Source: Amoebophrya sp. A120
Taxonomy: Eukaryota; Protista; Dinoflagellata
DNA length: 64,000 nt
Reading direction: 5' to 3'
Assembly (NCBI GenBank): GCA_905178155.1
Contig: CAJINV010000001.1
Coordinates: forward strand, 357,643 to 421,642
Part shown: in pieces, positions 1-43,640 of the stretch
Layout of the letters: each line of letters starts with the position of its first letter
How positions within the stretch are numbered: position 1 is the first letter of the stretch
Translations under genes and position numbers: made by a program
Notes under the pieces: model-generated
What the model was told of the DNA's origin: nothing
What the model saw: only the letters and a program-made list of their open reading frames with translations
Database searches by the model: none

Positions 1-2191
1 GCAAAAACTTTGTCCCAGCGAGCTGGGCGTTCGTGAACAGGATCGCAGACACCACATGATAAATCGCGACACCGACGAGCGACCAGGGAGTTGGAAACAG
101 TAGGTCGTCGTCTTTGCGCCTCACCAGCTCTAGGGCCCGATCAATCTCCGCCAGATGTGCGGAATAGAACATTTCGTCGAAGTACTCTTCAATTATTCTG
201 GTACGCCTTTCCAGCAATGCCATGGTTTCGTTCAGCCCCCGCACGAAGGTGGCCCAGGACCTCTCTTCGCTTCCGATAGTTGTATTTTGACTGGCGAAGT
301 GGAAGTCAGAAGTGCTGCTATTATCATTTGGTTGAAAGCGACGCGCGTGCAAAGCGTCCCAAGCTGTGATCGAATTTGAGTAGTACTTCTCGTCCTCGTA
401 CGGCGGGTCATATACGTGCCCAGTGTCGTCACGAGGCGCGGCCCAGGAAACCCAACTGTTACGGGATCGGTCGAGCCTAGAAATTAAATTGTGACGCTCG
501 CCCGAGGTTCCGGAAAGCGGAGAGCGTTTGATCACCTCCGCGTACTTGCGCGCCAGCTCCACTGCCCGGCGCTCGTCGACTACGATGACAAACTTCTCCC
601 CCGCTTCAGTTCTGTTCAGCAGGGCCTCCTGTTCGGCGTCGTAGGAATCAGTGGGCACGCACTTTGGGTGCAGTAGTTCTCGGGGTTCCGCGCCTACTTC
701 GCGAGCTGCCGCAAGCGCAAGAACATCGCCATCCGCTGGAAAAATAGTTGGCGACGTCAACGAGCTTTTCCAGCTGCAATATTCACGACCTCCGGATTGT
801 TCTACCGCAGTGCTGTTACGCGTCGCATTTTCGCGGCTGTTATGATGATGTCCTGTGCTGTCTTCAGCTCCGCTCCGCGTCTCCTCACCGGGACCGGAGG
901 GCGGCCTCCTCTTCATTTGACAAGGACAGTCAGTCTGCCACTGCAAAACCTGCAGACTGATCGCTGAGCTTTTCGGTTTTTGTCGCGCGAGCTCTGCGTT
1001 GGCTTGCCGTAGGCGCTCCGCAATCTATGGCGATGGCAGAAACTTTTTGCTCAAAAACTTTTTTTTTTTGGCATGTAAATCACCCATCGTGAGAACTAGA
1101 TATGTTTTTTGTGGCGAATATGTCACCCATGAAAAAGGCGGATTTATATGTTTGTTGAGCTAGCTAGTCTGAAGGCAGGAACAGGTCGACGCTGGACGTC
1201 GGTTGCGTCGCGGATTCGGAACCGAATCCGTGGCCACATGAGCACCGGGGACCACCTTCCTCCTGCCTTCAGACTAGCTAGTTACATAGTATGCCGCCGT
1301 AGTGCCTTTATGTAAACAAGACCTGCCGGTAGCAGGTGGCACATACATAGCTTATGGCAAAATCATATGTGGAAAAAAAAAAAGTTTTTGAGCAAAAAGT
1401 TTCTGCCATCGCCATACAATCGGATTCGCGCTGATTACGTAGTCGCAGATCTCGTTCTTGCATATGGAAGACGAAAGCGCCGCACCCGATGAATTTCGTT
1501 TTTCGCCAAAAAGTACACCACTCAACTCCATCGGAGAAGAATCTCCTGCAATCTGTAGTTCTTCTCCTTCTTCGCTTCGGCTTCCATAATTGGGAGCAGC
1601 CGTACTAGAGGGCAGCATTCTCCCGGCTTGTACTCTTCCCGAAGATGTCTGACCTGCTCCGCCTTGCTGCTGCAAACCTGCTACACTTGTTGTCGCCTCG
1701 CCATGATTGTCGCCGGAGGTATGATCGACGGAGTGCGGCGACCATGCGCAGCCCACGTCTTGGTCTACGTCTTGGTCCTTCTCTTCCCGATTCGCATTTT
1801 CTGGAGCAGCAGAAGGCCCCCAAGTCGTTGAGCCGCCTGTGCCAACCGCGACACGCAGAAAACTTTGCGGAGTGGAGATCGGCAGCAGAGTTGCAAGAAC
1901 TGCAGGACCACCTTGCTCCTCGTGCCCCGGAGACGTTTCAGCCTCGTCACTGTCTGATGGATGTTCGATTTCTGCAGCTTCCCACGTCGATGAGGAGAAC
2001 GTGGCCGGTAAAGAACTGCTCGACTTCATCTGCGCGGCTCTTTCCTGCCTTACAGCAGCTTCAGCGAGATACCAACACTTCTGTGTCATCTCCAGTGGAA
2101 AAAGTACCAAAGTCGTGCGCTGCAAGAGACATAGAACGCCATAGTGCATGGAGGAGCGCGAGCCGCCCGCCCGTCTAAAAAACGAAATCAT
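1..2191 (-). CDS. Array gene copy D, 5' part (runs off window), hypothetical protein
   Basis: ATG at 2191. The ORF is joined in frame across element 1026-1416 to AERLRQANAEL. Region 1-~520 is diverged from copy B. Confidence 0.75.
1026..1416 (-). mobile_element. Introner element (TATGG-type), 391 bp, acting as intron
   Basis: ~40-bp TIR TATGGCGATGGCAGAAACTTTTTGCTCAAAAACTTTTTT. TSD CAATC at 1021-1025 and 1417-1421. TSD plus TIR create GT (1417)...AG (1025) on the minus strand, and removal is in frame. Confidence 0.93.
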
Positions 2192-3075
2192 CTCTCTGGA
2201 ACAATGGTCGCCGCACTTCTAGTTGCGACTAAAGCTGCACCGTACCAATTGGGATCCAGACGGACGTGAAGATATTGAAGATGGCATGATAGATTGTCAG
2301 TCTTATTTGTGTTTGTTTCTGATGCCCTTGCATAAGAAACGTCCTCGCGGACTACGACCCGCCGGTCGTGTCTATCCTTGGACGTTTGCAGCACCTTCGT
2401 GGTCACGACTATGCTAGTAATGCTCCTGCTTCCACAATGGCTATAATCTGAATATGTACGGAAAGACGACCCGAAGCGGATGACCTCGAACAAGCCTGCC
2501 TCCGACTCGTATCAGAAAATTTGCGCTCCATGTTCCTCTCTCGAAGAGCCTCGCACACGACGAGTGATCCGAGATCCTGCCACAAACGATCAACCTCGCA
2601 GCGATGGCGCGTAACTTACGATCGTTGTACTGTTGTAAAATAATCATAATTGAACAAGAAAACGAGGACTACTACATGCCAGCACGTAATATGACGAAAA
2701 ATATCACGAAAATATCACGAGGCTCCTGAAGAAATATCACGAAAATCCCCCTGGTCCCTATGCGCCTGATCTTCATACAAGATGCCCGACGAAATTCTAG
2801 CTGCTCGAATGAAAGTATCCAGAAGGATACTTCCGATAAACCCCTTCAAACTGCGGCGCATTAACGAGGAACAGCATTCACGACTTCGTTGCGTATCACA
2901 GCGCGGATTCGCGGAAAAATTGACGCAGCTGCAACATGCTCCGTTCTTGCGGATTTTTCCAGCTGCACAAGAACTGCTGCCCATTTTCTCAACAAGAGAA
3001 GACGACGGATCATGGAACAGTGTTGCTTGTGCGGCCGCTGCGGCTGATGAGTGAGGGTGACAACTACGACTAGAG

Positions 3076-4557
3076 CTAGTTGGTGGAAAAATCAATGGCG
3101 TGTCGAGTGTACCAGTCTGCGAGCAAATCGGCAGGAATCCACTCCTTTGCGCCGCGATTTGTAAAGAGGCTGAGCTTATCAAATGTAAAAGTGTCTGGGT
3201 CTGGAAGGATGTAACCTGTGATGCACATTTCAGAACACACAAAAAACTCTCATGCATAGGTAGCAAAAGCTGCCCATTTTCTGTCATTAAAGTGGGGGAC
3301 TTGTCATGCGGGTTCGGCATTGCGGAAGCTTCTCGAAACCTGTGATGCTAGAGCTTCCATGCCAGACCTTCTGTGTCATGCAGAAACAGCATGACTCTTC
3401 CAGACCCAGACATTTTTGCATTTGATAGAGCTCTTTGTCGGCCTCGGCAACCGTCATCACGACCAGCTTCAACGGCTCGGGTCGTTCCTCTGGCACCTCT
3501 TCTAGGTGGTCTCTGAACATTTCTGTTTCAACTTGCGGTGTCGAGTTTCGAAAATTATCCGCAGTGGTGTTCTTCTTATTACCTGCACGGCTGGGTAGCT
3601 TCCTGCTGTTGGCGACCAGGCGAACCGCCGCCCGGACGGCGTCTCTCACCTGCGCTACGTCCCCCTCGTCGACGGCCAGTATGCCGCGAATGTTCAATCG
3701 GTCGCTCCACTTTTCACAACGCATTAGCATGTGCATCTGGGTGTGGAAAAGCCGGCGCCACCAGCCCCTCAGGCCCGCGCCGAGCAATTCAAACCGCTCG
3801 CGGAAACTATTGCGCTGCGTCTCCGAACGGCTCGTCACGTCGACCACATCGGCCACAACCAAAACCGGCAGACGCCCCGGGCCGAGAGCGTGCTCGAAGT
3901 TCGCGACGGCGGTCGCATTCGCCTCGCGTTGGCTCCAACCGAACCAGCCCTTCCACCCGTGTGGAAGCCGGCCCGCGTTTTTGAGGGAGTACTCCTTCGC
4001 GGCGTCCCACATGCGCCCACTCTCTCCCTCGCCCGTGCACTCGTTCATTCGAAAAGAAAGGGGCGCCGCTGCGACAACGGTCGGGCGCACGTCTGTAGTC
4101 AGGTTGAACCATTGTTTTTGGGCGTCTGCCATCTGCACCCGCTCACCACCAAAGAAGTCGATGCCGTTTTATGCAAATAAAAATGAACTAGTGTTACTGC
4201 AGTTCTTACACACTGTGAGGCAGCAAGACACACAACCTCTGTCATGCCCGAAGTGCTTGATGCGCATCTCTTTCCATGCTGGCCAGGGGCGATTTCACTT
4301 ATGACCTCCGCATTGGTTGGTAATTGCAAGTTTGCTTTGGCACAGCGCAAATTTGTGTTGCCAAGTGTGACTGCAGCACTACTCTTTGTTCGCTTTCTCT
4401 TTGATACCTTGCGCTGCAAAAACATTGTCCCAGCGAGCTGGGCGTTCGTGAACAGGATCGCAGACACCACATGATAAATCGCGACACCGACGAGCGACCA
4501 GGGAGTTGGAAACAGTAGGTCGTCGTCTGTGCGCCTCACCAGCTCTAGGGCCCGATC
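3076..4557 (-). CDS. Array gene copy C, 3' part (5' part lost in gap)
   Basis: Identical to copy B. Removing elements 4170-4406 and 3177-3427 gives ...QRKGIDFFGGERVQMAD...DKELSLFTNRGAKEWIPADLLADWYTRHAIDFSTN*. Confidence 0.75.
3177..3427 (-). mobile_element. Introner element (TATCAAAT family), 251 bp
   Basis: TIR TATCAAATGTAAAAGTGTCTGGGTCTGGAAG / CTTCCAGACCCAGACATTTTTGCATTTGATA. Perfect TSD GAGCT. Removal restores the frame. Confidence 0.92.
4170..4406 (-). mobile_element. Degenerate introner element, 237 bp
   Basis: TAT...ATA ends with decayed TIR (shared GAAC and CTGCAGT blocks). Degenerate TSD CGTTT/CCTTG. Removal of the element plus 5 nt joins the 429-aa and 283-aa ORF frames. Confidence 0.75.
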
Positions 4558-4994
4558 NNNNNNNNNNNNNNNNNNNNNNNNNNNNNNNNNNNNNNNNNNN
4601 NNNNNNNNNNNNNNNNNNNNNNNNNNNNNNNNNNNNNNNNNNNNNNNNNNNNNNNNNNNNNNNNNNNNNNNNNNNNNNNNNNNNNNNNNNNNNNNNNNNN
4701 NNNNNNNNNNNNNNNNNNNNNNNNNNNNNNNNNNNNNNNNNNNNNNNNNNNNNNNNNNNNNNNNNNNNNNNNNNNNNNNNNNNNNNNNNNNNNNNNNNNN
4801 NNNNNNNNNNNNNNNNNNNNNNNNNNNNNNNNNNNNNNNNNNNNNNNNNNNNNNNNNNNNNNNNNNNNNNNNNNNNNNNNNNNNNNNNNNNNNNNNNNNN
4901 NNNNNNNNNNNNNNNNNNNNNNNNNNNNNNNNNNNNNNNNNNNNNNNNNNNNNNNNNNNNNNNNNNNNNNNNNNNNNNNNNNNNNNNNNNNNNN
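4558..4994. other. Assembly gap (437 N)
   Basis: Run of N. Confidence 1.
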
Positions 4995-5582
4995 GAACAA
5001 GCCTGCCTCCGACTCGTATCAGAAAATTTGCGCTCCATGTTCCTCTCTCGAAGAGCCTCGCACACGACGAGTGATCCGAGATCCTGCCACAAACGATCAA
5101 CCTCGCAGCGATGGCGCGTAACTTACGATCGTTGTACTGTTGTAAAATAATCATAATTGAACAAGAAAACGAGGACTACTACATGCCAGCACGTAATATG
5201 ACGAAAAATATCACGAAAATATCACGAGGCTCCTGAAGAAATATCACGAAAATCCCCCTGGTCCCTATGCGCCTGATCTTCATACAAGATGCCCGACGAA
5301 ATTCTAGCTGCTCGAATGAAAGTATCCAGAAGGATACTTCCGATAAACCCCTTCAAACTGCGGCGCATTAACGAGGAACAGCATTCACGACTTCGTTGCG
5401 TATCACAGCGCGGATTCGCGGAAAAATTGACGCAGCTGCAACATGCTCCGTTCTTGCGGATTTTTCCAGCTGCACAAGAACTGCTGCCCATTTTCTCAAC
5501 AAGAGAAGACGACGGATCATGGAACAGTGTTGCTTGTGCGGCCGCTGCGGCTGATGAGTGAGGGTGACAACTACGACTAGAG

Positions 5583-8500
5583 CTAGTTGGTGGAAAAATC
5601 AATGGCGTGTCGAGTGTACCAGTCTGCGAGCAAATCGGCAGGAATCCACTCCTTTGCGCCGCGATTTGTAAAGAGGCTGAGCTTATCAAATGTAAAAGTG
5701 TCTGGGTCTGGAAGGATGTAACCTGTGATGCACATTTCAGAACACACAAAAAACTCTCATGCATAGGTAGCAAAAGCTGCCCATTTTCTGTCATTAAAGT
5801 GGGGGACTTGTCATGCGGGTTCGGCATTGCGGAAGCTTCTCGAAACCTGTGATGCTAGAGCTTCCATGCCAGACCTTCTGTGTCATGCAGAAACAGCATG
5901 ACTCTTCCAGACCCAGACATTTTTGCATTTGATAGAGCTCTTTGTCGGCCTCGGCAACCGTCATCACGACCAGCTTCAACGGCTCGGGTCGTTCCTCTGG
6001 CACCTCTTCTAGGTGGTCTCTGAACATTTCTGTTTCAACTTGCGGTGTCGAGTTTCGAAAATTATCCGCAGTGGTGTTCTTCTTATTACCTGCACGGCTG
6101 GGTAGCTTCCTGCTGTTGGCGACCAGGCGAACCGCCGCCCGGACGGCGTCTCTCACCTGCGCTACGTCCCCCTCGTCGACGGCCAGTATGCCGCGAATGT
6201 TCAATCGGTCGCTCCACTTTTCACAACGCATTAGCATGTGCATCTGGGTGTGGAAAAGCCGGCGCCACCAGCCCCTCAGGCCCGCGCCGAGCAATTCAAA
6301 CCGCTCGCGGAAACTATTGCGCTGCGTCTCCGAACGGCTCGTCACGTCGACCACATCGGCCACAACCAAAACCGGCAGACGCCCCGGGCCGAGAGCGTGC
6401 TCGAAGTTCGCGACGGCGGTCGCATTCGCCTCGCGTTGGCTCCAACCGAACCAGCCCTTCCACCCGTGTGGAAGCCGGCCCGCGTTTTTGAGGGAGTACT
6501 CCTTCGCGGCGTCCCACATGCGCCCACTCTCTCCCTCGCCCGTGCACTCGTTCATTCGAAAAGAAAGGGGCGCCGCTGCGACAACGGTCGGGCGCACGTC
6601 TGTAGTCAGGTTGAACCATTGTTTTTGGGCGTCTGCCATCTGCACCCGCTCACCACCAAAGAAGTCGATGCCGTTTTATGCAAATAAAAATGAACTAGTG
6701 TTACTGCAGTTCTTACACACTGTGAGGCAGCAAGACACACAACCTCTGTCATGCCCGAAGTGCTTGATGCGCATCTCTTTCCATGCTGGCCAGGGGCGAT
6801 TTCACTTATGACCTCCGCATTGGTTGGTAATTGCAAGTTTGCTTTGGCACAGCGCAAATTTGTGTTGCCAAGTGTGACTGCAGCACTACTCTTTGTTCGC
6901 TTTCTCTTTGATACCTTGCGCTGCAAAAACATTGTCCCAGCGAGCTGGGCGTTCGTGAACAGGATCGCAGACACCACATGATAAATCGCGACACCGACGA
7001 GCGACCAGGGAGTTGGAAACAGTAGGTCGTCGTCTGTGCGCCTCACCAGCTCTAGGGCCCGATCGATCTCCGGCAGAGATGCGGAATGGAACATTTCGTC
7101 CAAGTACTCGTCATTCATTCTGGTACACCTTTCCAGCAATGCCGCGCTTTCGTTCACCACCCGGGCCAAGTCGGTTGCGTTCACCGCCCACCGGAACATG
7201 GTGGCCCAGGACCTCTCTTCGCTTCCGATAGTTGTATTTTGAGCGGCGAAGTGGAAGTCAGTGCTGCTATTATCGTTTGGTTGAAAGCGGCGCGCGTGCA
7301 AAGCGTCCCAAGATGTGATCGAATTTGCGTAGTACTTCTCGTCCTCGTACGGCGGGTCATATACGTGCCCAGTATCGTGACGACGCGCGGCCCAGGAAAC
7401 CCATTTGTTATCGCTTCGGTCGAGCCTAGAAATGAAATTTTGACGCGGGAGAGAGTCTCCGCCAAGTGGCGAGCGTTTGATCACCTCCGCGTACTTGCGC
7501 GCCAGCTCCACTGCCCGGCGCTCGTCGACTACGATGACAAACTTCTCCCCCGCTTCAGTTCTGTTCAGCAGGGCCTCCTGTTCGGCGTCGTAGGAATCAG
7601 TGGGCACGCACTTTGGTTGCAGTAGTTCTCGGGGTTCCGCGCCTACTTCGCGAGCTGCCGCAAGCGCAAGAACATCGCCATCCGCTGGAAAAATAGTTGG
7701 CGACGTCAACGAGCTTTTCCAGCTGCAATATTCACGACCTCCGGATTGTTCTACCGCAGTGCTGTTACGCGTCGCATTTTCGCGGCTGTTATGATGATGT
7801 CCTGTGCTGTCTTCAGCTCCGCTCCGCGTCTCCTCACCGGGACCGGAGGGCGGCCTCCTCTTCATTTGACAAGGACAGTCAGTCTGCCACTGCAAAACCT
7901 GCAGACTGATCGCTGAGCTTTTCGGTTTTTGTCGCGCGAGCTCTGCGTTGGCTTGCCGTAGGCGCTCCGCAATCTATGGCGATGGCAGAAACTTTTTGCT
8001 CAAAAACTTTTTTTTTTTGGCATGTAAATCACCCATCGTGAGAACTAGATATGTTTTTTGTGGCGAATATGTCACCCATGAAAAAGGCGGATTTATATGT
8101 TTGTTGAGCTAGCTAGTCTGAAGGCAGGAACAGGTCGACGCTGGACGTCGGTTGCGTCGCGGATTCGGAACCGAATCCGTGGCCACATGAGCACCGGGGA
8201 CCACCTTCCTCCTGCCTTCAGACTAGCTAGTTACATAGTATGCCGCCGTAGTGCCTTTATGTAAACAAGACCTGCCGGTAGCAGGTGGCACATACATAGC
8301 TTATGGCAAAATCATATGTGGAAAAAAAAAAAGTTTTTGAGCAAAAAGTTTCTGCCATCGCCATACAATCGGATTCGCGCTGATTACGTAGTCGCAGATC
8401 TCGTTCTTGCATATGGAAGACGAAAGCGCCGCACCCGATGAATTTCGTTTTTCGCCAAAAAGTACACCACTCAACTCCATCGGAGAAGAATCTCCTGCAA

Positions 8501-10024: not shown

Positions 10025-13000
10025 CTAGTTGGTGGAAAAATCAATGGCGTGTCGAGTGTACCAGTCTGCGAGCAAATCGGCAGGAATCCACTCCTTTGCG
10101 CCGCGATTTGTAAAGAGGCTGAGCTTATCAAATGTAAAAGTGTCTGGGTCTGGAAGGATGTAACCTGTGATGCACATTTCAGAACACACAAAAAACTCTC
10201 ATGCATAGGTAGCAAAAGCTGCCCATTTTCTGTCATTAAAGTGGGGGACTTGTCATGCGGGTTCGGCATTGCGGAAGCTTCTCGAAACCTGTGATGCTAG
10301 AGCTTCCATGCCAGACCTTCTGTGTCATGCAGAAACAGCATGACTCTTCCAGACCCAGACATTTTTGCATTTGATAGAGCTCTTTGTCGGCCTCGGCAAC
10401 CGTCATCACGACCAGCTTCAACGGCTCGGGTCGTTCCTCTGGCACCTCTTCTAGGTGGTCTCTGAACATTTCTGTTTCAACTTGCGGTGTCGAGTTTCGA
10501 AAATTATCCGCAGTGGTGTTCTTCTTATTACCTGCACGGCTGGGTAGCTTCCTGCTGTTGGCGACCAGGCGAACCGCCGCCCGGACGGCGTCTCTCACCT
10601 GCGCTACGTCCCCCTCGTCGACGGCCAGTATGCCGCGAATGTTCAATCGGTCGCTCCACTTTTCACAACGCATTAGCATGTGCATCTGGGTGTGGAAAAG
10701 CCGGCGCCACCAGCCCCTCAGGCCCGCGCCGAGCAATTCAAACCGCTCGCGGAAACTATTGCGCTGCGTCTCCGAACGGCTCGTCACGTCGACCACATCG
10801 GCCACAACCAAAACCGGCAGACGCCCCGGGCCGAGAGCGTGCTCGAAGTTCGCGACGGCGGTCGCATTCGCCTCGCGTTGGCTCCAACCGAACCAGCCCT
10901 TCCACCCGTGTGGAAGCCGGCCCGCGTTTTTGAGGGAGTACTCCTTCGCGGCGTCCCACATGCGCCCACTCTCTCCCTCGCCCGTGCACTCGTTCATTCG
11001 AAAAGAAAGGGGCGCCGCTGCGACAACGGTCGGGCGCACGTCTGTAGTCAGGTTGAACCATTGTTTTTGGGCGTCTGCCATCTGCACCCGCTCACCACCA
11101 AAGAAGTCGATGCCGTTTTATGCAAATAAAAATGAACTAGTGTTACTGCAGTTCTTACACACTGTGAGGCAGCAAGACACACAACCTCTGTCATGCCCGA
11201 AGTGCTTGATGCGCATCTCTTTCCATGCTGGCCAGGGGCGATTTCACTTATGACCTCCGCATTGGTTGGTAATTGCAAGTTTGCTTTGGCACAGCGCAAA
11301 TTTGTGTTGCCAAGTGTGACTGCAGCACTACTCTTTGTTCGCTTTCTCTTTGATACCTTGCGCTGCAAAAACATTGTCCCAGCGAGCTGGGCGTTCGTGA
11401 ACAGGATCGCAGACACCACATGATAAATCGCGACACCGACGAGCGACCAGGGAGTTGGAAACAGTAGGTCGTCGTCTGTGCGCCTCACCAGCTCTAGGGC
11501 CCGATCGATCTCCGGCAGAGATGCGGAATGGAACATTTCGTCCAAGTACTCGTCATTCATTCTGGTACACCTTTCCAGCAATGCCGCGCTTTCGTTCACC
11601 ACCCGGGCCAAGTCGGTTGCGTTCACCGCCCACCGGAACATGGTGGCCCAGGACCTCTCTTCGCTTCCGATAGTTGTATTTTGAGCGGCGAAGTGGAAGT
11701 CAGTGCTGCTATTATCGTTTGGTTGAAAGCGGCGCGCGTGCAAAGCGTCCCAAGATGTGATCGAATTTGCGTAGTACTTCTCGTCCTCGTACGGCGGGTC
11801 ATATACGTGCCCAGTATCGTGACGACGCGCGGCCCAGGAAACCCATTTGTTATCGCTTCGGTCGAGCCTAGAAATGAAATTTTGACGCGGGAGAGAGTCT
11901 CCGCCAAGTGGCGAGCGTTTGATCACCTCCGCGTACTTGCGCGCCAGCTCCACTGCCCGGCGCTCGTCGACTACGATGACAAACTTCTCCCCCGCTTCAG
12001 TTCTGTTCAGCAGGGCCTCCTGTTCGGCGTCGTAGGAATCAGTGGGCACGCACTTTGGTTGCAGTAGTTCTCGGGGTTCCGCGCCTACTTCGCGAGCTGC
12101 CGCAAGCGCAAGAAAATCGCCATCCGCTGGAAAAACACTTGGCGAGGTTAACGTCATTTTCCAGCCGCTGCAATATAATTCACGACCTCCGGATTGTTCT
12201 ACCGCAGTGCTGTTACGCGTCTCATTTTCGCGGCTGTTATGATGATGTCCTGTGTCTACAGCTCCGCTCCGCGTCTCTTCATCGCCGGAACCGGAGGGCA
12301 GCGGCCTCCTCTTCATTTGACAAGGACAGTCAGTCTGCCACTGCAAAACCTGCAGACTGATCGCTGAGCCTTTCGGTTTTTGTCGCGCGAGCAGCTCTGC
12401 GTTGGCTTGCCGTAGGCGCTCCGCCATCGGATTCGTATGGAAGCGTCAGGTTTGAAATTCTCAAAGTTGAAAAAAAAATCTAGGTATGGCGTTTTATATA
12501 GAACTCTTAATACAAAACTAACATAAGTATCTATTTGGCGTGTTTATCTAGCTAGTTCAAAACTGCGCCCGCGGATGCGTCACGCATCCGCGGGCGCAGT
12601 TTTGAGCTAGCTAGTTAATCATCTGATAAACGCCACATGCATGCACGCCATAAGTAGTGTATTATTAAGGTACCTTAAAATTTTTTTTCAACTTTGAGCA
12701 TTTCAATCCTGACATGCCCATAATTGGCGCTGATTACGTAGTCGCAGATCTCGTTCTTGCATATGGAAGACGAAAGCGCCGCACCCGATGAATTCCGTTT
12801 TTCGCCAAAAACTACACCACTCAACTCCATCAGCGAAGAATCTCCTGCAATCTGTAGTTCTTCTCCTTCTTCGCTTCCATGAGGAGCAGCCGTACTTCCC
12901 GACGGCAACATCCTCCCGGCTTGATGTACAACTCTTCCCGATGTCCGACCTACTCCGCCTTGCTGCTGCAAACCTGCTACGCTTGTTGTCGCCTCGCCAT

Positions 13001-14948: not shown

Positions 14949-16416
14949 TCATAATTGTTCCCCCGTATCCCCGCCAATGACCTCTGTCCACATCTTCTCG
15001 CAGAATTCCGTGGCGGCGGTCTCGCGGTTTTCCCAGTCCGCCTTCATCGCCGACTCCAAAGTGGTCACTAGCCCGTCGCAGGTTCCCTTTGCGTCCGCCG
15101 GAGCTCCCGCGCACATCTTCTTGCCGTAGTCTGGGCCGGATTTCGCTTTGAACTGCAAATAATTTGAAGCAAGTGCTTTGTTTCTCATATTTGTTATGGG
15201 CACCATTGTGTTTTTTTTTTCAATGCTGTCTCACTAGAACCCGAGTGCCCAGATCATGTGCAGCTCCTTCGACAAATGAGCAGACTCGTATCTCTGATGT
15301 CTACCTCGAACTAGAAGACAAGCATCACCGTCATCATTTATCCTGCACTTGGGGGGGACGTGCGGAGGGGTTGATGGGGTTCAAGTTCACAATGAATAAA
15401 ACAAAGCTTTGTAACTCGTACCAACGACGGCCTGAGCACCCCATTTTTGCAGTCGACGTTGAAGAGAATCTGAAACACGCTTTTGAAGGCCTCTGCCTCG
15501 TTAATCTGCACTTCCTGGCACTTGCCCGCCCAGTCCTCCCACACCTCGTTTACAATGTCGCACTTGACCCAGAAAAACATGTTGTGCCCGGCCCCGTAGC
15601 TGCCTCCGTCCCGGCCGTCCAACGAGTACCCCTCAGCGCACTGGTATTGTGCGCCTTTCACCGGGTATACTGAGTAAAAACGTCCCCATACCATACTTAG
15701 TCAAGATCCGCTAGACAAATCAACCAGCTATGGTTGTTTCGCATGACAGGTTTGTCCTGGTAGTGTAAACCTGTTTAGCTAGTTCCGAAGCAGCACAGAT
15801 CTAGCATATCATGCTGATTCTAGCATCACAAATTCCAAAACACGACTCGAAGATGCAGATGGTTCTCATGAGGCTCCGCATGAGGAACTTTTTTGGCATG
15901 CAAATTTGCATCACAACTCTGGGGTGGGAACGTTTTGACTTCGGATACCGGGTCCGTGATGTTCGCAAACACCGCGTTGTGATTCTCCGGTCGGGGTGCC
16001 GGGCACCGGGGTTTCGGCACGCACCCGTACTCCTCGATGACCGTTTTGAAGTACCCCGCTTCCTGGCAAACCATCTTGGGCGGCTCGCCGACAAAGCCCT
16101 TCTGGCAGGCCAGTTGCAGTTCGTACCCCGGGTCAAACTCGTCCTTCCGCGTGTCGTCGCGGGGAATGTACGTGTTCTTGGGGAAAACGGTCGGCATAAT
16201 GCACTTGACGTCCTTGGTACTATGATGTGTCTCTTCGCGGCGACGGGCATTTGATATTTTTGAACTTGTACCGCTACGCTTGGAACTACCGAAAAACAAC
16301 CGGGAAGTCGACACAGAGGAGGTTCCAGAAGTCCTCGCAGAAACCTCCTGCGTCACAGCGAGGAACACCGTGAGGCGTCCAATTCTCCCCCGCGTCTCCC
16401 GACGCCGCCCCACCAT
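14949..16416 (-). CDS. Probable secreted protein with two Sushi/CCP-like modules and a C-terminal saposin-like helical module
   Basis: Motifs C..P.FPKN...F.PG...LACQKGFVG.P.KMVC and CPAPRPENH...YQCAEGYSLDG...C....W.....C. Introns 15666-15947 (introner) and ~15153-15439 (GT-AG) restore the frame. The start codon is uncertain. Confidence 0.65.
15666..15947 (-). mobile_element. Introner element, 282 bp, non-canonical intron
   Basis: TIR TATACTGAGTAAAAACGTCCCCA vs TATCCGAAGTCAAAACGTTCCCA. Perfect TSD CCGGG. Removal gives ITDPVKGAQYQC. Confidence 0.88.
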
Positions 16417-17113
16417 GATTGGAGGACCTCGACCGGAGGAAGTTCTCGCCTGTGGACTAAAATTTGGAACGGACGAGGAAATGGCAAGTTGTTGAGTTTC
16501 TGTCTCGAAGAAAAATTGTTGACCCTTCTCGAACAACAATCAAAAATTGTAGCATCAAACTGGTCACGGAAGATCTTCTTCTTTTTTCCCGAACAACGAC
16601 AGGCTGGAAAATTTGGCCAGTTGCTTCAGACTATGCGCGGCGAAGGGAATTCGTTCAATTTGTCGTTGAAATTTTCGTTCCAAGCAATGTGACTTGTTTC
16701 CCGGAGACAACGGGAAAGCAAAAGATAAAGATTTGCGGTGGCAATGTCCTCGACTGATGCTCACCGCAGAGCGCACCATGCGGAATCACACGAGAAAGGG
16801 GTAGGGAAAAGTCGCGCAAGACAACAGAAAGTGAGAAGATAAAACTACACATTGCAGCTGGTAGAATGATCTACAGAAAGATTAACATATGCTGTGCTGG
16901 GGGTAGAAAAATTCATCACTGAAGTAGACGTAGAGCAAGTTCACTTGCAAACCACTTCAAGAATACTTCGTATGTATATCGTGTAGAGGTACAACACGAG
17001 GTACGTTCAAGTTGATTGCATAGAAATACGCGCAATGGGACTAAAGTACTTCAAAAAGTAGTATGAAATTCACAGAGGCCGTGGCTATTTCCAGAACTTT
17101 CCTACTTTTCATT

Positions 17114-20100
17114 TTATGCATATTTCGCGTCTTTCGTGACAAACCACAAATTTAGCACAAACACCACGTACAGGACAGCGAAGACCGTTGTCGTGTTGCT
17201 ATCCAGCGTGTACTCTCGCACGGCAGCCCAGCCCACCAACAGGAGTAGCGTCCCCGCCATCCAGATCGTGCCGCACTCCAGGCCCGGGGAACGCAAGGGG
17301 ATCGTCACGACGCTTCCACTACTGGCGAAGACGTAGCACTTGAGGAACCAGGGCAGAGCCAACGCCACAAATGCATTCTGCACGTTTGACCCCAGCGCGT
17401 TCGCGATCGCCATGTTGCTCTTCCCGTCCTTGTATCAAATGCAAAAGTGTCTGGGTCTGGAAGATTCTGAGACTTGCCATGCATGTTTTGTATGACCCAG
17501 AATGTCTGTACTGCACGACCTAGCATCACAGATTTTTAGAGGGCTTCCTGATGCCTATTCCGCATTACAAATGCCCTCTCCACGTAGCACAGTCTGGGCT
17601 CCTCTTCCTGGTCATGCAATACAGATTTTTTTGGAGTCCAAAGATAGCATGACAAGTTTGGATCCTTCCAAACCCAGACATTTTTACAGTTGATACCTTG
17701 CTCGCCAAAAAAGAGGCCCACACGTTCGGCAAGGAGGTTCCCGCGGCACAGAGCGTGGCCCCCAGGAAGCCGACGGGGATTTGGTACGCTTTGGCCAGGT
17801 GCTGGACGGTGGAAACCATCAGGTTGGAGAAAATCCCGAGCCACAGCATGGACAACAAAAAGCACCAGTACCACCGGTGCTGGCGACTCGTCTCCTTCGG
17901 GTCGCACCAGCTCATGGTGATATCGTACAGAAAGTTGATCGGCGCTTCAAACACGAGCAGTAACTTCCGCGCGGTGCCGATGGTCTCCTCCTGCAAGTCG
18001 TTGGTTAAGTCCATCAAAGCGTCATTTGACATCACGCTCGCCCGCCGCCGCAACTTGGTGCTGGCGACGCGAGGAAGCATCTGCGGACTGGATTCGGTCG
18101 AGGAAGCGATCGACGACCGCAAAATCGGTACTACTGGTGGATTGTTATTCCTGTAACCGCTCAACACCTGGATTCGCTCCGGCGGGGCGTGTGCTGGTCT
18201 ACTGTTGCTATTCATTTTGTAGGTCGTAGTACCATTGTTGTATCTACTTTTTTCTTCAAGCGAAAGAAAGTTGTCGCCGCTCCCTGCGGTCGTGGTCCCT
18301 GAGGTAGTTATTTGCTGGCGACGTGCAAGTTGTGAAGAAGAACCGGGCCGGTTGTAGTAGTTACCGTCATCGCTACTGGCCGTAGTTCCGGATGTCGCGA
18401 GATTGGGGCCCTGCTGCATGTAGATCGGGAGATTGTACTTGAACGGTCCACCGCTGGTGCCCTGAGTTTGCGATGGTCTAGCTGGAAGTGGTTGTTGTGC
18501 GGTCATCTCAATACGAGCGGAAGTGGACCCCAGATGAACGTCGTGTTCTGACGGTGCCGAACCCCCTGCTCCACCAACAAATTGGCCCGCACCCTGCAGC
18601 TGCTGCCCCGGTGTAGTTGTAGTAATACTTCCCGGGCCCCCGATCTGACCCCCGATGCCGAAGGTCATCTGCGTTCTGCGCAGCTTGGCCTGCTCCTCCA
18701 ACTCGCACTCCACTGGCAACAGGTCGCGAATCAACCGCTCCTTGTCCTCGAAGCGCGCGAACTCCAGCACTAGCACGACTTTCTCGCCGTAGCTCCCTCG
18801 CACCTGCACTTGCACCTTACGGCTGCTGGGGTCCGCGTCTTTGAGGCAAATAATGTCATCGGAAGAAACCCCGGTGGTTTGGTGCCGTGCGTACGTCTTC
18901 GTATACTTTTTCGCCTGTTTCTTCGGACTCTGACTACCCGCTTGGTTGTGGTTGTTGTTTCTTTCCGTGTTCGGACTGATTTTTTCTGCTCCAGGAAAAA
19001 ACTGCTCCGGGGGAGGGGCCGTCTGATTGTATCGGTTGTACGGCTGAACATTATTTATTGCTGCCGTCGACAGGTTCTTATTTCCGCCATAATTGCTCTG
19101 TTCCGTGCTGGTGCGCGAAAATCCACCAGACAGCTGCTTTTGAAGGAGCGGCTGTTGCAAGGGATGATGTTTCGTAACCTTATTACTCTGTCGCTGTTGT
19201 CCACCACCAGTACCAGCCAAAGCCTGATACAGCATGCCGCCCTCGGTGGCGGTTCCAATACTGCTTCGCATCGTTCCGTCAGAGGACTCTGCTGACTGGC
19301 TCAGCTGCTTCTCCTTAAGATTGTAAAAACCTTGATTTTCCTGCTTTGCCGCTACTTCGAAGGGAACACTTATCCCGTTCGCTGCTCCTGGATAGGTACT
19401 GGTGTGGTGCAACATTGCGACGTGGTCACCACCACCACTAGCCTGGTAAGCCTCTATGCGCGGCATGTCTGGGATGTCGTCACTGTCCTTCCGTGAAGAG
19501 GCGGGCAGCGACGGGCTCCGGCGCTGGATCACACCAGTCGCATTGTCTTGCTTCCACACCCCACCAGGTCTGGTGCCATTCTGCGCAAGAAATGGCTTGT
19601 CGAAGTGCGCAGGACCTCCGGTCCACTTATTGTTCTGGTCCATCTGCGATTTGAGTTTCAGCTGTAAGCCGGTGATGAAAATCTTGCCGTCCTTCCGCAC
19701 GAGCAGGTGGTCGTGGAACCGACTGTCGTGGGAATCGATCATCCGATTCCGCCGGATCACCTTCACCCGCACGCGCGCGACCTCTGCGCCGTCCCGCAGC
19801 ATTTTGGGCGGGACTTGCTGCATCAAGGATTCTTGCCCGAATTCCGGCGAGGCCACGACGTGCTTCGCCCGTTGCAGCGGGCTGCTGTCGGTGCTACCAC
19901 CGCTCGTCGCCCCGCCGATGGAAGAGGGCGGCGGCCGAAGATACAGGGTGTTGCTGTAGTTGCTCTTGCTGTCGGCCGTGCTCTGGGATGAACTGCCGAA
20001 AAGCAATGGCGCAGTTAACGGAGCTACGGTGGCCGCGGTCGTCCTTTCCGATGGCGCTTGCTGTAGTCCAGCTGCCGGTTGGCTGCTGTAGGTTGAAGTT

Positions 20101-21839
20101 CTTGACGCGCGAGAAAGTGGGAGCTGCGGCAAAGGTGAATTCTTCACACTACTTCTTCGGATGGACGGCAACTGCAATGTGCTGAACGCTCCTCCGAGCG
20201 GAGGAGATGATGAATTCGTCTGCGCAATTATTTGTTCCCCGACTGCTGCTGCAGGAACTAAAGGAGGTTTGTTTTCCTTGTCTTGTTCCGTGAAAATTTC
20301 GCTCTGTTTCTGTTCCGGCGAGGCAGCTATTCCGAACAAGTTGTCGATGTCCGAGAGACCGGGGCGGTTCGCGGATTCCTGTCGGTTCTGCGCGAATGTG
20401 ACGGGGTCCTCGATGCTGCTGTCTACTGAGGCCTGGATGAACGATCCCTGCCGGCTGTCGTCCTTGCTGTTTAGCTCCTGCCTGTCGAACAATTCCTTAA
20501 ATTTCGCTTCCTTTTCCTGTTGCACATCAGTCGCGGTAGTTGTGACACCTGCGCGTTCACCTGCTCGCGCAGAAGCTGCGGAATTGTTGTTCGCTGCGCT
20601 CCCAGCATTCGCGTTCGACGTCGTCCCTAGAGCGAAATAGTTGAAGGCGGAGTCCTCGTTTGTTCCTCCCGCCGCCCCGGGTACAACGGCCAACGCTCCG
20701 CTCACATCTTGCGAGAGTGTCGGCGCGAGCACGAGCGTATCGAAGGATCCCGGGATGAAGGGCGCGGACGAGGTGAGTTGCTCGTTGATCTCCGTGATCT
20801 TGCTCAATTGCTTCGCGCGGAATTGTTCGAGACCACCCAACTGGTCTCCTCCGGCGGATGCTGGTCCTTCGGCGGAGGCAGTTCTGGAGCCGGCGTTGAG
20901 AATCTCCTCTTCCAGTTCCGCATTGTCGTCCTCCTCCGTGGTATCGTCCTCTGGGAAAAAATACGCCGTTGAGCCCACGCAAACCGCGTACAAAATCGCG
21001 CAGCTAAGCAAGACCCCGCTGTCGACTGCGCCCACTTCTCCCTTGAAGAAGAGATAAGCTAGTAGCACGATGGAGAGGGCGTAGAAGCCGCAATCGCGGC
21101 GAAAGGAGACCACCGAGAGCTCCAGGGGCATCTCCGGGCACGCGTACACCGCCGCGGCCACGATGGCCAGCAGGTTGAACACCTGCGTGCCGACCACCTG
21201 CGTGACCCCGACGTCCGAGGGAATCAGGAAGAGCGATACCAAATTCGTGATCAGCTCCGGGCCGTTGCACCCCAGAGCGAGGAGCGTCGCCCCGGCCACG
21301 TCCTCGGGAATGTCAAATTCCTCTACCACCACCTCGATGGCGGGCACCAGCCACTCGTCCGTGACGGAAACTTGGGCGTAGAAAATGTAAATCACGACCA
21401 GCCACCAAATCCAGCGCCCGTCCTCCTCGACGATCTTGATTTTCTCCTCCACTTCCTCATCCGTTCTTGCGCGGTTGTCGCTGTCTTCAGCCGGAGTTGA
21501 GGATGTCAAGAGGAGCTGCGCAAGGTCCTGCTGTTCCGAAGTCGTGGACGACTGTGATTGCTTTTCTGTGCTGTCATCAACATCTTCATCTGCTCCGGAG
21601 ATCTTGGCGCTTGTTGCAATAAGGAGAACTGCTGGGGGTCGCTTATTTGGTTCTACTACTTCAGTCGCGTTTGCAAGGGCTACGCTTTGACTTTCAGCAG
21701 GACCTGACGTTGCACCGCTGCTCGTGTCCGGATTTTTCATGGTCGCCGACGCGGCTCTCGCATGCTCCGGGCAGAGCACGAGTATGTTGCTAGCCGATGC
21801 CTGGATCAGCAGCAGAAACTTTCGTACAGCAGACAGCAT
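17114..21839 (-). CDS. Cation/Ca2+ exchanger, NCKX (SLC24)-like, with very long cytosolic loop
   Basis: Alpha-1 repeat DVAGATLLALGCNGPEL...GTQVFNLL. Alpha-2 repeat GATLCAAGTSLPN...ASKDGKSNMAIANALGSNVQN, reconstituted across the introner at 17433-17695. Confidence 0.92.
17433..17695 (-). mobile_element. Introner element (TATCAAAT family), 263 bp
   Basis: TIR TATCAAATGCAAAAGTGTCTGGGTCTGGAAG. Perfect TSD CCTTG. Forms a GT...AG intron that splits the conserved alpha-2 motif. Confidence 0.95.
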
Positions 21840-23031
21840 GTCCTCGTGGCTTGTTTACCAGTTCCCGGCGCTGACGGAGTGACGTCACAAGATCGCTTCC
21901 ACCTTGTTCCCAGGCTGGACTGTTGCTCGCGTGGTCCTTATGTTTCTTTCATGTTGAAGATTCATCTTGTCGCGTAGGCGTACTATTCTCAATACTTTGA
22001 ATAAACCTTGTCATACGATGAGGAAAATGAAAAGCCAAAATTTCCTGTAGTTTTGTTGTAAATAGAAGCTGTTTCCTGTTGTTCAGAAATTGCTCAAACG
22101 CTCGCTTTTCTTGTACATATTCTGCAGGAGCGGCTAGGGCATCGATACAAGTCAATGCTTGTCGAAAAATATAAACGGTTTACGGTTTTAGATTTCATAT
22201 ATCTTCTTTATGTTCAGGTGATTCGTCGAAGTCCGATCGATGAGCTTGTAGCTTTGAGCAGACCGAATTTCAAGATTTGGTAGTGATCTCAGGAAGGAAA
22301 GCCCGAACTGGCATTCGAGAAGCTTTTCTTGAGCTCCTCAGGTTGGAGCGTCACCGAGGATGCGGAAGCGCAAAGCTGTTGACCGATCCGTGCCTTAAAT
22401 GCCACATTCATCACATACATCTGATTTCAGCCTGACGGTGAAACAGAAACTTCCACATTACTTATTACATCGATCGGCGCACACCTGAAAGCAGCAACTA
22501 TTCTTGTTTTTCCGGCGCATGAACATCAGCTGTCGCAGCAGCGTGAAAGAATACACGACGACGCTGTCACGGCACTCTTCGTCCGCGAGACCTCCCAGCT
22601 GCAGTCGTGTGTACGAATGATGAATGAAAATCTTCTCATTGTCATTCTCCTGGCTAATATGATTTCTTTCCTTAGATTTTAGAGCGCAGTCAGTGGGTAA
22701 TGTCGTTGCGTGTGCGTAGAAATATCAAGAAGATGAATGGTCCTGCCTCAGCATGAACCACACGAAGTTGGCATTATCTATGTAGTTTCGTCGTTAGATT
22801 TAGGACGCGATCGTACAAGATCTTGATTGACACACATGACGCAGAAGAGGCGATAGTTGAGGACAGCACAGGACCGGCGTAGTTGCAACGACGTCGATTG
22901 AAGCTGAAGGACCAGCGTTTTTGTGAAACTTCATCACATAAAAATTCTTTAGATTTCATCGCGACCAGAGCTCCTTCGGGAAACAAGTCGGAGCTCTTGA
23001 AGCGCCTCCCGTCCTGCTTGCAGCCTCTGCC

Positions 23032-25868
23032 TCACGCCGCGGCCTCTTGCACGACCACCCGCAGGGTCTGTCTCCACGAGGCGGCACTGGGCGGCCCGCA
23101 CCGGGCGCCGTGGTAGCAACTCCGGAAAACGGCGACGCCTGGCGCCAGGGCGACAAATTTGAAGGCCACTTTCAGCACCGTGTGGCCCGGATGAAAGTTC
23201 AGGTCAAATTCGCGGTGCAGGTAGAAGACATCCTGTGCGACGACGTCTTCGCGGTCGATTGCAAAACGCCACTCGTTCTCTGTTTGTTTCCATAAGGGTG
23301 TTAGACTTAAAGAGCTGAAATGGAAAACAAGGCATAGGATTAGATAGCATGATGTGCTAAAAAGCGTATTATGATATTGCAAATGCAAGAGTGTTCATCG
23401 ATTCGTATCAATTATACCGTCAGCGACATCCTCAAGCTCGACGAACAGCACTGCATCTCCAACTGTCAAAGACAAATCCTCCGTAACGTTCGCGCTAATT
23501 TCCACCGTGTTCCCCGTGTGAAAACCGGCAACTTTTCGCGCGCTGAGCTCGTCTTGGTACCTGTAGATGTACAACCTTATAACAGCAACAGAGATCTTCA
23601 CTGACGATAGAAGGCCAAGGCAGAAAGAGAAACAGAAACACTGACTGCTGCAAACGTAAAAAGACCCCAACCAGTAAAGCCTTTACGTGGCCCCATGGCT
23701 CCCGGAAGCTTCGTGCTCCGCCTCTGCTTGCGCGTGGCGAAGCAAGTCTGGGACTGGCGGGTTTTCTTTTATGACAAAGCTACACGACGACGCCTCGCTG
23801 CCCTCCAGGCTGATCGCGGGGAACAGCGGGTAGCTCTTCGGGATGTCTGGGAGCGACCGCGCGTCGGCTGAAAACTTTCCGTTTATCCAAAACGAAAGCT
23901 TCGCTTGTGGCTGCGACGCGTCGAGCAAGACGCCGAGGGTATCTGTGATTTTTCACCACATGCTGCACAAAAGCCGTGACCGGCGTACTATTTTTAGGGG
24001 CTATTTTTATTGTCGAAAAAGAATGAATCAAGATAAGCCCCTGAGGAACCAATGACACGAGATGTTGAGACTTTGTTTTCGCCTTCCTCGAAAAACGTCA
24101 ACTGTACCTCCTGGCCTGAAGTGCCTACCCTGTGCCAAGGTGACGCAATGACCCTCGTTTTCCTCGACGGACTGATTGATGTTGATTCGTGTTTCCACAC
24201 CCCGCGGAACCACACCAAATTTGATATCCACGCCGGCAGTCTGAATTTCAATTTTCGGAGACCAAAATAAGGACCGAGCAACACTCTGCCTACTATAAAC
24301 CATAACCATTTCTATTCGCCAAGAGGAAGAGGAAGAGCAAAATCAAAAAGCATATGCATAAGGATAAGCACGACCACCTCAACCAATAAAAAGCCCTTCC
24401 AAGAAACCTGCTGTTGCGGCCCGGGCTCTGCTGTGTTCAGGAACTCCCAGTAGTGCTTCCCACTCGAAAAGCCTTTGACGCTGAGCAACATCCCAGTCCC
24501 CGTCCCCGACCTCACATAGGCCCCCGGCTCGGCCTCCAGAAACCCGCTGCGGTTCGCCCCAAGACAGGAAACGTCCACCACAAAGCACTGCGTGTTGTTA
24601 CACGCGTTAATATTAGCACCGTCCTGAAACTGCTGCATCGACGCCGCTTTGCTGCCGCTGCGACTGCCCGGGCGAGATCCGGTTTTGCTACCGGAAGACC
24701 GCTGTCTCGAGGCAGGTGCTGCTGCTGGGCCCTTGCTGCTGGAGGACGTGGACGTCGACGGTTGAAGATTTTGGTGCAGTTTCCCGGCTGTCGCAATCGT
24801 GCCGTGTGATGTCGTGCCGTCTTTAATACTGGTCGTTGTGCTCGCCTGCAGTTGCTGTGCGTGTTGCGTTTGTCCGGGTCGTGCGCCCGCGGCGTGATAC
24901 TGCCGCGTCCCGTTCGGCGTGCTGACCACCCGAATGGTGTGCGGCTGTTGCTGTTGCTGTATTTGCATCCCATTTGTATTCATCCCGGCTAAATGCGCCA
25001 TCGATTGGCTCTGGGTGAGCACATCCACGTGATGATCATTGGGCGTCGTATGGATTGCAAAAATGGGTTGGTCTGGAAGATTCCGAGACCTGTCATGCAG
25101 ATTTTCCATGATCCATGTCACCTGGAATGCAGGACCTAGCATGACAGATTCTGCGGGATCCCTATCATGCCTATCCTGCATGAGAAACTTCCTCTCAACT
25201 TCGTCAAAAGTGGGCAACTTTTGGAATTCATGCAACACAGATTTTTGCATGATCCAGAATTAGCATCACAAGCTCCAACTACCTTCCACCAGACCCAGAC
25301 ATTTTTACATTTGATACGTTGCATTAGACGACAAAACGGCCGCCTGCTGGTACTGCTGGTACGACCGCGGCGGAGGAGGGAAGTGCAGCGAGGCGACCGA
25401 CGCCGTGCCTGTCAGTTGTTGCGGCCCGGACGGCATGCGATAGTACTGGGGCGTGTAAGGCTGCGCAGATGTACTAGAGAGCAGATTGCTGCTGAAGCCC
25501 GCAGGCGTGCCCGCCGTACTACTGCTCACAGCAGTGGTAGCCTGCTGATGTTGTTGTCCAGGAGCTCCTGCACCATGGAGAAACTCACCCTGCGCCTGGA
25601 GCCACGAACTTTGGAGATGATGCGCAGTTGAGGTGGTGGAGTAGGGGGACGGGGTTGCGACGGCTACCGGCGGCTCGACCTTCATGTCGAAGATGGAGGC
25701 CCCGACGTTTTTGCTCGCGGCGGACCAATTCGTACCCCCCGCGCCGCCGAGACTCACCCGCAGCGCATCCGGCTGCAGCCCCACGGTCACGCCCTTCAGA
25801 GCCGGGGGGGCGGCCAGTAGCCGAGTGTTCATGCCGGACAAAGTGCCGGTGCTGCGGCTCCGCTGCAT
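23032..25868 (-). CDS. SPRY/B30.2-domain protein with low-complexity N-terminus and a C-terminal beta-rich (possibly chagasin/Ig-like) module
   Basis: SPRY motifs GFSSGKHYWEF, IKFGV, GDTLGVLLD, LSFWING and LFPAISL. Phase-compatible introns: 25049-25316 (introner), 24241-24407, 23943-24107, 23561-23686, 23280-23417. The start codon is uncertain. Confidence 0.78.
25049..25316 (-). mobile_element. Introner element (TATCAAAT family, one end decayed), 268 bp
   Basis: Right TIR CCAGACCCAGACATTTTTACATTTGATA. TSD CGTCG/CGTTG. Removal gives SSNATPNDHH in frame. Confidence 0.85.
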
Positions 25869-40756: not shown

Positions 40757-41967
40757 CTTCCGCTGCTAGTGAGTTGTTGTTGGGATTCTGATGGAATATA
40801 GCGCTGGCTTAGGTCAACAAGCAAAATGGGGGACAATTACGCTTAGGTTACTTACTTGCTTAGGCAGGATATTACAATTACATTCAATCAGAGACAGAGT
40901 GTCAGAAGATCAAGATTTTGATTTAGATTTACAAATACTTCGGGTTCGTAAAATACAATTCAGCACAAGCTTCTTCGGTTCGTAAAATACAAATTTAGCA
41001 CTCAATTCGACCACAGATTCGATCTGCCGCACCAGGAAGGCGGCTCCTTTCGGAGTAAAATGACCATTCGCGGATATTTTTATGGGGGGGAACCAAAAGG
41101 GAAACGACGCACTGGGTCGAAGCAATACGATGCGGATGCCATCTGATAGATACTATCACGAGGAGCGCCAAAAGAGCGTAGAACTTCTACGTCTGCACAT
41201 TTAAAGCCATGAAGAAACGACGAGGCTTTGCACGATCACGAGAGGACGAAGTGAGAGAACAAAATGACACGGTGACTTTTCAAATTATGGAACGAAACCG
41301 ATTCCGAACGCAAAAAGCGATTGGTGCACTCACCTTGCTGACTTTATCTTGAAGAAGATGTAGATAGGAAGACGACGGACGAAATAAGCTGACGAGATGG
41401 CAGAGGACTTTATTGCTTCGCTGTCGTGACCAAGTACGATGTACATGAACGACGATCGCATACTAGAGAATTCTGCAATGGGACGGGTCAACCGAGAGCG
41501 AACAAAACAAGAACGGCGACTAGCACAAGTTGTGTTCACTGCACGAGGACACCTGCAGCTTGGCTTTCATGATTCTTGGCGAAACCGGGAGGAAAGAATG
41601 AGAACTATCTGAGAACGCCAGAACATCGGGATCGAGCTACACAAGTACAACTATTGGGTGCAGCATCAAATTAACATTAAGTCAATTCCTTTACAATTAC
41701 AAATCTGAAAGAATAGGATGTTACGTCAACGTCGCGTTGAAGATTTTGGTATGGCGATTGGATAATCCCTGTCGTTGGGTGCGAACTCTAAGTGGTCGGT
41801 GGAATGGGTATTAAACTAAGTATAACTCCTATTGCTGAGCAGGGGCAGTTAAAATTTTGCAACAGGGAGGAAAATCGTCCACGCCGAATATTTTTTTGAC
41901 AACTTTCATACTTTCCAAAGCTGTCGCGATTTGGGAAGTCGCCCAACGCCCAACGGCCAACGGCCAA

Positions 41968-42972: not shown

Positions 42973-43144
42973 GCAACGCAAAATATTCTGCAGGGTCGCT
43001 CGGATCTGCGCGATCGCGTGGCACCTCCTTACTGCAACCCCGAAGGAAAAAAAAACTTCAGCTGATCGCGCGTCCGAGGAGAGCAACGCGATCCACCAGG
43101 CAGCTGAAGACCGAAGGCGGCGAGCGCTGTACATGGATTGCCAC

Positions 43145-43640
43145 CTATCCTACTGGGAAATCTTTCCCCTGGGTAGCCAGAATTGCTGTGCTAAGCACAG
43201 CAATTCGGGGAATTTTTCCTCCCCGAGCCAGTACCTTCCCGCTATCCCAATACCCCCTCACTATCCTGATACCCTCCCAGTACCCTACTGGGACATCTTT
43301 CCCCTGGGTAGCCAGAATTGCTGCGCTAAACACTGCAACTCGGGGAAAACAAACAGAACTCTCCCACCCCGAACCCGTACGCTCCCACTATCCCAATATC
43401 CCCCCACTATCCTGATACCCTCCCAATACCCTACCGGGAAATCTTCCCCCTGGGTAGCCAGAATTGCTGTGCTAAACACAGCAACTCGGGGAAAACAAAC
43501 AAAATCCTTCCTCCCCGAAGCCGTGCTCTCCCATTATCCTGATGCCCCCTCATTATCCTGATACCCTTCCAGTCCCCTTATGGGAAATCTTTCCTCTGGG
43601 TAGCCAGCATTGCTGTGCTAAACACAGCAACTCGGGCAAA
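43145..43640. repeat. ~135-147-bp tandem repeat, ~3.5 copies, each with a TTGCTGTG..CACAGCAA-type hairpin
   Basis: GGGAAATCTTTCCCCTGGGTAGCCAGAATTGCTGTGCTAA recurs at ~43151, 43286, 43432 and 43579. Confidence 0.92.

Follow-up and report, generated by a model that had tools for sequence, protein, structure and literature searches.

The stretch of 64,000 nucleotides of the Amoebophrya sp. A120 genome analysed here, referred to as the window, possesses seven distinct TAT...ATA elements with 5-bp target site duplications (TSDs): A, C, H and the elements starting at 3177, 15666, 17433 and 25049. Duplicates at 5684, 7975 and 10126, a weak candidate at 16971-17122 and long low-scoring TAT..ATA pairs were left out of the counts. 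Except H, all these elements (6/7) interrupt minus-strand frames, and leaving out the element along with 5 nt joined long stop-free runs in five of the six; the element at 3177 joins 245 and 33 codons. Pfam matched one of 17 frames, the minus-strand Na/Ca exchanger gene at 17568-21854 (PF01699), which is split by the element at 17433, and no transposase was identified. At 28430-40765 the minus strand carries a stop-free frame of 4112 codons, which showed no Pfam match. The window also contains an array of about 1 kb made of a 17-bp unit at 41968-42998, beyond which other repeats, both inverted and direct, lie at 43146-44200.

Element A (1026-1416) is a 391-bp TAT...ATA introner of the non-autonomous terminal inverted repeat (TIR) type situated in a minus-strand gene, where 265 and 342 stop-free codons are joined once the element and 5 nt are left out. 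It is flanked by the duplication CAATC (1021-1025 and 1417-1421) and bounded by a perfect 44-bp TIR, with the left copy at 1026-1069 on the plus strand and the right copy at 1373-1416 on the minus strand. Inside the TIRs lie two spacers of almost equal length, 90 nt on the left (1070-1159) and 91 nt on the right (1282-1372), which are not complementary to each other (z=0.24). They enclose a perfect 21-bp inverted repeat, whose left arm (1160-1180, plus strand) starts with a CTAGCTAG box and is the same in a second copy described below, and whose right arm (1261-1281, minus strand) ends with the box. The centre is occupied by the hairpin CGCGGATTCGG-AA-CCGAATCCGTG (1209-1232), 41 nt away from each box, with a stem of 9 bp (1211-1219/1222-1230) or 11 bp counting one G.T pair. 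Both the inner repeat and the hairpin are placed at an offset of -0.5 from the element midpoint. The first-pass annotation had described exactly this concentric anatomy, and its coordinates were correct.

Positions 1040-1402 of A were matched without differences by a 363-nt DNA contig, from a run which is possibly the window's own source. By the rough measure of contig depth (27-33, compared with 21-29 in paralogue-specific contigs), the interior of A seems to be low-copy. An identical second copy of A at 7975-8365 is likely an assembly duplicate. It lies in a duplicated block, 669-4557 being identical to a block 6949 nt downstream, and the N gap at 4558-4994 is flanked on both sides by 2070 identical nucleotides (2488-4557 and 4995-7064). 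This duplication is likely a scaffolding duplicate within a tandem gene array.

Element C (12436-12722) is a 287-bp introner in a paralogous exon, 7 bp from the site of A, with the TSD ATTCG/ATTGG. In two paralogues, the same exon received independent insertions of related but differing introners, 7 bp apart (1021-1428 and 12424-12727). The core of C (12548-12614) is composed of CTAGCTAG boxes around a palindrome with 33-bp arms and the hairpin CGCGGATGCGT-C-ACGCATCCGCG, 14 nt from each box. The arms (12548-12580/12582-12614) pair at 32 of 33 positions with one T.G pair, and the centre at 12581 has an offset of +2 from the midpoint; the earlier description of this palindrome holds. The spacers of C are 65 and 61 nt long and show no mirror complementarity (z 0.19). 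In the window CTAGCTAG occurs at six sites, all within A, its duplicate at 7975-8365, and C.

The sequences show a relationship between A and C: the two cores align (z=5.65), the spacers barely do so, and both cores have in common the CTAGCTAG boxes and the hairpin CGCGGAT[T/G]CG. The hairpin stems differ by double changes which preserve pairing (T-A to G-C, and G-C to T-A beside the loop). The distance from box to hairpin is 41/41 in A and 14/14 in C, so that length differences are mirrored on both sides. These mirrored differences, along with those of the spacers (90/91 against 65/61), suggest that the two halves changed together, as expected from arm-to-arm copying. The TIR of C belongs to a high-copy family with many different flanks, most of whose relatives have another interior, and C therefore looks chimeric.

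Element H (53693-55321) is 1629 bp long with an imperfect TIR of about 85 bp and the TSD TGACA. It is situated between two ORFs, and its two open frames showed no Pfam match. The inner arms are at offsets of -0.5 and -1, which bears out the first-pass annotation that the 1.6-kb element has the same concentric property, and there is no CTAGCTAG box. The centred palindrome (54412-54601) carries copies of the TIR motif GTTCTTATC; all eight matches to this motif in the window are inside H, in both the TIR and the core. The spacers of 634 and 635 nt are unrelated (mirror z=0.81). A 120-bp tandem repeat (81-84% identity) includes the left arm of the palindrome and has no complete mirror on the right, and the centring of H therefore appears younger than the 120-bp duplication. 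Centring to 1 nt despite this one-sided repeat may hint that the central position was actively set or selected. H also holds off-centre hairpins at 54800-54868.

The concentric layout of A, C and H is confirmed. The number of centred paired bases was 30 in A, 32 in C and 38 in H, and no shuffled interior attained as many (0/300, 0/300 and 0/100, respectively). The chance that a randomly placed core lies so near the midpoint was 0.011 for A, 0.039 for C and 0.0024 for H; the values for A and C are not independent because the two elements are related. A centred inner inverted repeat was absent from four of the seven distinct window elements and from two of the three elements of a metagenome contig, so overall six of the ten elements examined have no centred core. 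The four in the window served as controls: the high-copy 251-bp introner at 3177-3427 with copies at 5684 and 10126, the 282-bp introner at 15666-15947, the 263-bp introner at 17433-17695 in the Na/Ca exchanger gene, and the 268-bp introner at 25049-25316. The family of 3177-3427, without a core, is the highest-copy family. Decayed mirror similarity past the TIR was observed in the 17433 element (z 4.6-5.0).

These four elements look related by their letters and share repeated GCAT[GC]AC motifs, possibly binding sites; the motif has 14 matches in 3371 nt of element DNA and 13 in 53680 nt of other DNA. The TIR pattern of the 3177 family had no matches in viral contigs or in contigs of prokaryote genomes.

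A metagenome collection was scanned with a pattern of the features common to A and C, and gave one match, in the contig L001. This match, 386 bp long, is a full copy of A with 93% identity; it lies in another gene, its TSD is CTTTT, and its orientation to the host frame is opposite to that of A in the window. A complete second copy in another gene, with another TSD and in opposite orientation, indicates that the core travels together with the element. When the two copies were compared, no changes were seen in the 64 positions of the inner stems, 3 among the 121 of the entire core and 15 among the 175 of the outer spacers (Fisher p=0.013 for stems against spacers and p=0.045 for the whole core against spacers). 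The stem of the A hairpin is unchanged in the second copy and its loop is changed. If the arms are assumed to change in concert, the absence of changes in 32 pairs has P=0.057, and constraint on the core is therefore only moderately supported in this comparison of two A copies and one C. A 5-nt deletion in the second copy shifts its core to an offset of 3.5 nt, so exact centring is not obligatory. The contig L001 contains further complete TAT...ATA introners without a centred core at 1526-1788 and 2049-2226, and another one, cut by the contig end, at 6533-6574. The exon beside A and C has CGGATTCG, which resembles the hairpin arm; the insertion site in L001 lacks it, and the idea of a target guide was dropped as coincidence.

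Evidence on splicing came from joints in assembled contigs. The joint 12434-12727 skips 292 nt, corresponding to the element and one duplication, and was found in both of two putative RNA runs (one sample) and in neither of two DNA runs (one sample). A putative RNA run had no coverage of the interior of A or of the intergenic bins 2310-2845, both of which are covered by a DNA run, and the interior of C was also at zero depth in putative RNA. The contigs do not fully separate the A and C paralogues. The joined contigs have one difference more than listed, for which position 12425 is the sole candidate in the stretch, so that the joint is probably that of the A paralogue, from which A and 5 nt were precisely cut out. 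Whichever paralogue it is, an interrupted allele is restored without GT-AG ends in these putative RNA contigs. The joint of 3177 occurs in a DNA run too and is therefore no evidence of splicing. Among raw RNA reads of 2026, one run gave 94 reads, all partial and all on the 3177 family, and another run gave none. The core is likely dispensable for splicing. A general requirement of the structure for excision, as had been proposed, is unlikely, since six of the ten elements have no core and five of these six restore a long frame when removed.

The explanation favoured here, with somewhat better than even confidence, is that A and C are non-autonomous TIR transposon-introns in which template switching made the halves mirror images of each other and later decay spared only the constrained motifs. 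As the second locus shows, the unit inserts as a whole, core included, at sites unrelated to one another and in both orientations. Mobilisation would depend on a transposase acting in trans, probably of the integrase type. In transcripts the element and one duplication would be removed exactly with non-GT-AG ends, as seen for the paralogue pair in the putative RNA contigs. Template switching during gap repair or replication would produce one half as a mirror copy of its partner and so place everything on the central diagonal. The spacers would then decay, and the TIRs, the CTAGCTAG boxes and the CGCGGAT-CG hairpin would be kept by constraint along with local arm-to-arm correction; these kept parts are likely protein-binding sites. 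In simulations, decay of a perfect palindrome gave a median length difference of 3-14 nt, and the match observed in A, C and the second A copy was reached without strain (P 0.06-0.23 for A and 0.2-0.7 for C). The decayed mirror similarity of the 17433 element beyond its TIR also speaks for this reading. H is fitted poorly: after decay of the similarity, a length match as close as its own had P 0.01-0.09. Remaining mirror similarity was sought in the spacers of all three elements and not found, so that there is no direct trace of the palindromic ancestor.

Selection on the midpoint itself would be another route to the same layout. Cruciforms can occupy the apex of DNA loops. The core might thus be a functional organiser, acting as a cruciform, a bend or a protein-binding site at the loop apex and uniting the TIRs for transposition; equality of arm length would matter and arm sequence would not, by analogy with the central gyrase site of phage Mu. 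This reading is considerably less likely than the favoured one. Equal-length non-complementary spacers in two unrelated lineages (90/91 and 65/61 in one, 634/635 in the other) would be expected from it, as would the centring of H despite the one-sided tandem repeat, the recurrence of the TIR motif GTTCTTATC in the H core and the persistence of core motifs from A to C while the spacers barely align. In the available description of Mu, the position of the central site is the best for replication (PMC10052514). Against such a role, the second A copy transposed or persisted at an offset of 3.5 after its 5-nt deletion, the highest-copy families have no core whereas the A interior looks low-copy, and only three lineages are involved, picked after the fact. 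The case leans on one element, H, which was itself chosen in this way. The broader generalisation, that some eukaryotic transposon-introns form a subclass with a palindromic site maintained at the exact midpoint as a geometric organiser, pinning the loop apex so that the ends meet, is by the same analogy conceivable but rather doubtful.

It is unlikely that the core is an old separate palindromic MITE which inserted halfway along an introner, with CTAGCTAG (8 bp) or CTAG (4 bp) as its target, and has co-travelled since. The two CTAGCTAG boxes are readable as a target duplication, and C, with a high-copy TIR and a different interior, looks chimeric. Independent nested MITEs had been named in the first-pass annotation as the reading that would undo its claim; the CTAGCTAG cores were found only inside elements, never outside them in the window, and the second A copy, the sole metagenome match and a complete element, moved with its core. 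Neither free cores nor empty host elements were found in the window, the metagenome scan or the contigs at about 80-85% identity or with exact patterns. Among viral contigs a loose core pattern had 41 matches, none with the hairpin or a second box. The DNA runs contained no joint skipping the C core, and one extra core-bearing contig also has the C TIR, a weak case with a side of 22 nt. Nesting also leaves the central target unexplained, as well as H, which has no box. Helitrons start with TC and end with CTAG. The core was read in this way too, and its flanks were unsuited.

It was also proposed in the first-pass annotation that the whole element folds as one rod, as RNA or single-stranded DNA, required for splicing or priming foldback replication. 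The stems are conserved and folding energies were far below those of shuffled sequences (z -13.8 to -15.4), but such low energies are already expected from the TIR and core stems alone. The TIR-to-core spacers are equal in length but non-complementary, and the A, C and H elements are therefore not one rod; no spacer pairs across the centre, and the predicted RNA and DNA folds are multibranched. The lack of a core in six of ten elements also counts against it, as does the lack of matches to Rfam 15 at the gathering score in the window and L001. No strand-switch joint was found at the centre of A or C, either in one joint list, which is complete, or among 15 of the 34 joints of the other. The TIRs and 5-bp TSDs point to staggered-cut, cut-and-paste integration by an integrase or transposase, and hairpin-primed replication is unsupported. 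Helitrons and other rolling-circle elements have asymmetric ends and are not known to make target duplications. A Helitron or other hairpin-primed identity does not fit the 5-bp TSDs and symmetric TIRs, and the one-rod fold is very improbable as a whole. That the palindromes are artefacts of assembly or sequencing is scarcely credible, since despite the likely scaffolding duplicate nearby and the contig ends falling at the C palindrome centre (12581), the 363-nt DNA contig equals 1040-1402 and the core recurs in an independent, diverged copy at a separate locus, which largely refutes an artefact for A.

A and C fit the known introners of Amoebophrya A120. In the main account of these introners they are non-canonical introns of co-oriented genes with terminal inverted repeats starting with TAT, short direct repeats at the borders, a predicted stem-loop and no coding capacity (Farhat et al. 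2021, PMC7789003). The window elements likewise have a TIR beginning with TAT, and the border repeats of 3-5 nt described there correspond to CAATC/CAATC, ATTCG/ATTGG, TGACA/TGACA and, in L001, CTTTT/CTTTT (PMC7789003). Non-canonical splice ends, in putative RNA, and repetition at unrelated loci are also shared by A and C. The motif TAT, 7 nt and at least three A, given as a family trend (PMC7789003), was found in five of the seven window elements including H, whereas A and C have no A-run at position 11. In the parts of the Amoebophrya introner literature covered (the text and supplement text of PMC7789003, PMC12130899 and PMC2955051, figures aside), no description of centred inner cores with unrelated equal-length spacers was found, and neither CTAGCTAG nor the TIR strings were found in the searched supplements (part of PMC12130899 and PMC9860276).

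Palindromic introners are known as such. In one supplementary table, 3 of 58 A120 families are labelled palindromic, along with 30 rows in other species (Gozashti et al. 2025, PMC12130899, sd07); in 19 of the 56 rows seen an automated TIR call takes up 85% or more of the element's length, a figure that may exaggerate the real symmetry. As far as these entries go, the families are full hairpins or plain TIR elements, unlike the alternating mirrored blocks observed here (PMC12130899). Fully palindromic introner families are thus already catalogued; the present elements differ from them by mirrored blocks that alternate with unrelated equal-length spacers. The A120 family fam38 is listed with '5-bp TSD, TA/TA termini' and classed as Ginger, and fam86 is listed at 1619 bp with a TIR of 84 and simple repeats; H resembles fam86 in size and TIR length, a likeness not drawn from sequence (PMC12130899).

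The template switching preferred here has precedents in other systems. Switching from TIR to TIR in gap repair was proposed for the MITE Goblin of Aedes and for whole-hairpin MITEs, which are likewise non-autonomous TIR elements with mirrored halves; they differ in not being introns, and no conserved central core is described for them in the sections consulted (PMC3814204). Polymerase switching is also said to homogenise the arms of inverted repeats (PMC13100816). The foldback-MITE combination of TIR and TSD without a transposase ORF was found here too. A whole-hairpin foldback MITE was rejected as an identity, as the halves are not complementary over most of their length. The hairpin MITEs named above would have TA target duplications, as Tc1/mariner elements do, in contrast to the 5 bp of the introners here. 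In the fungal family Hypoxylaceae, sister stwintrons are repeated introns with long terminal symmetry and two CTAG-containing palindromes (WTTCTAGAAA) about 100 nt apart, and in the portion of the report used symmetry is dispensable for splicing and linked to proliferation; they differ in having canonical U2 splice sites and no target duplication, and the likeness is one of description (PMC8469720). In phage Mu a strong central gyrase site similarly helps to unite the transposon ends, but Mu is a 38-kb autonomous bacterial phage and the gyrase site is not a palindrome, so the parallel is an analogy only (PMC10052514, as far as consulted).

Introner mobility and splicing without GT-AG ends are given as open questions in the main account of the A120 introners (PMC7789003, in the text covered). 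The present elements show that an inner core can travel with the element and stay conserved, yet be absent from most neighbours. Accordingly, the termini are the place to look for the basis of splicing, and the core the place to look for that of mobility. Should the midpoint turn out to be under selection, such a geometric rule would be unusual among eukaryotic transposons; an organiser of this kind would explain equal-length unrelated arms of up to 634 nt, offer a handle on introner mobility and form a miniature counterpart of the Mu site. If centring was instead inherited from foldback copying, the concentric layout would be a record of how these introns are born.
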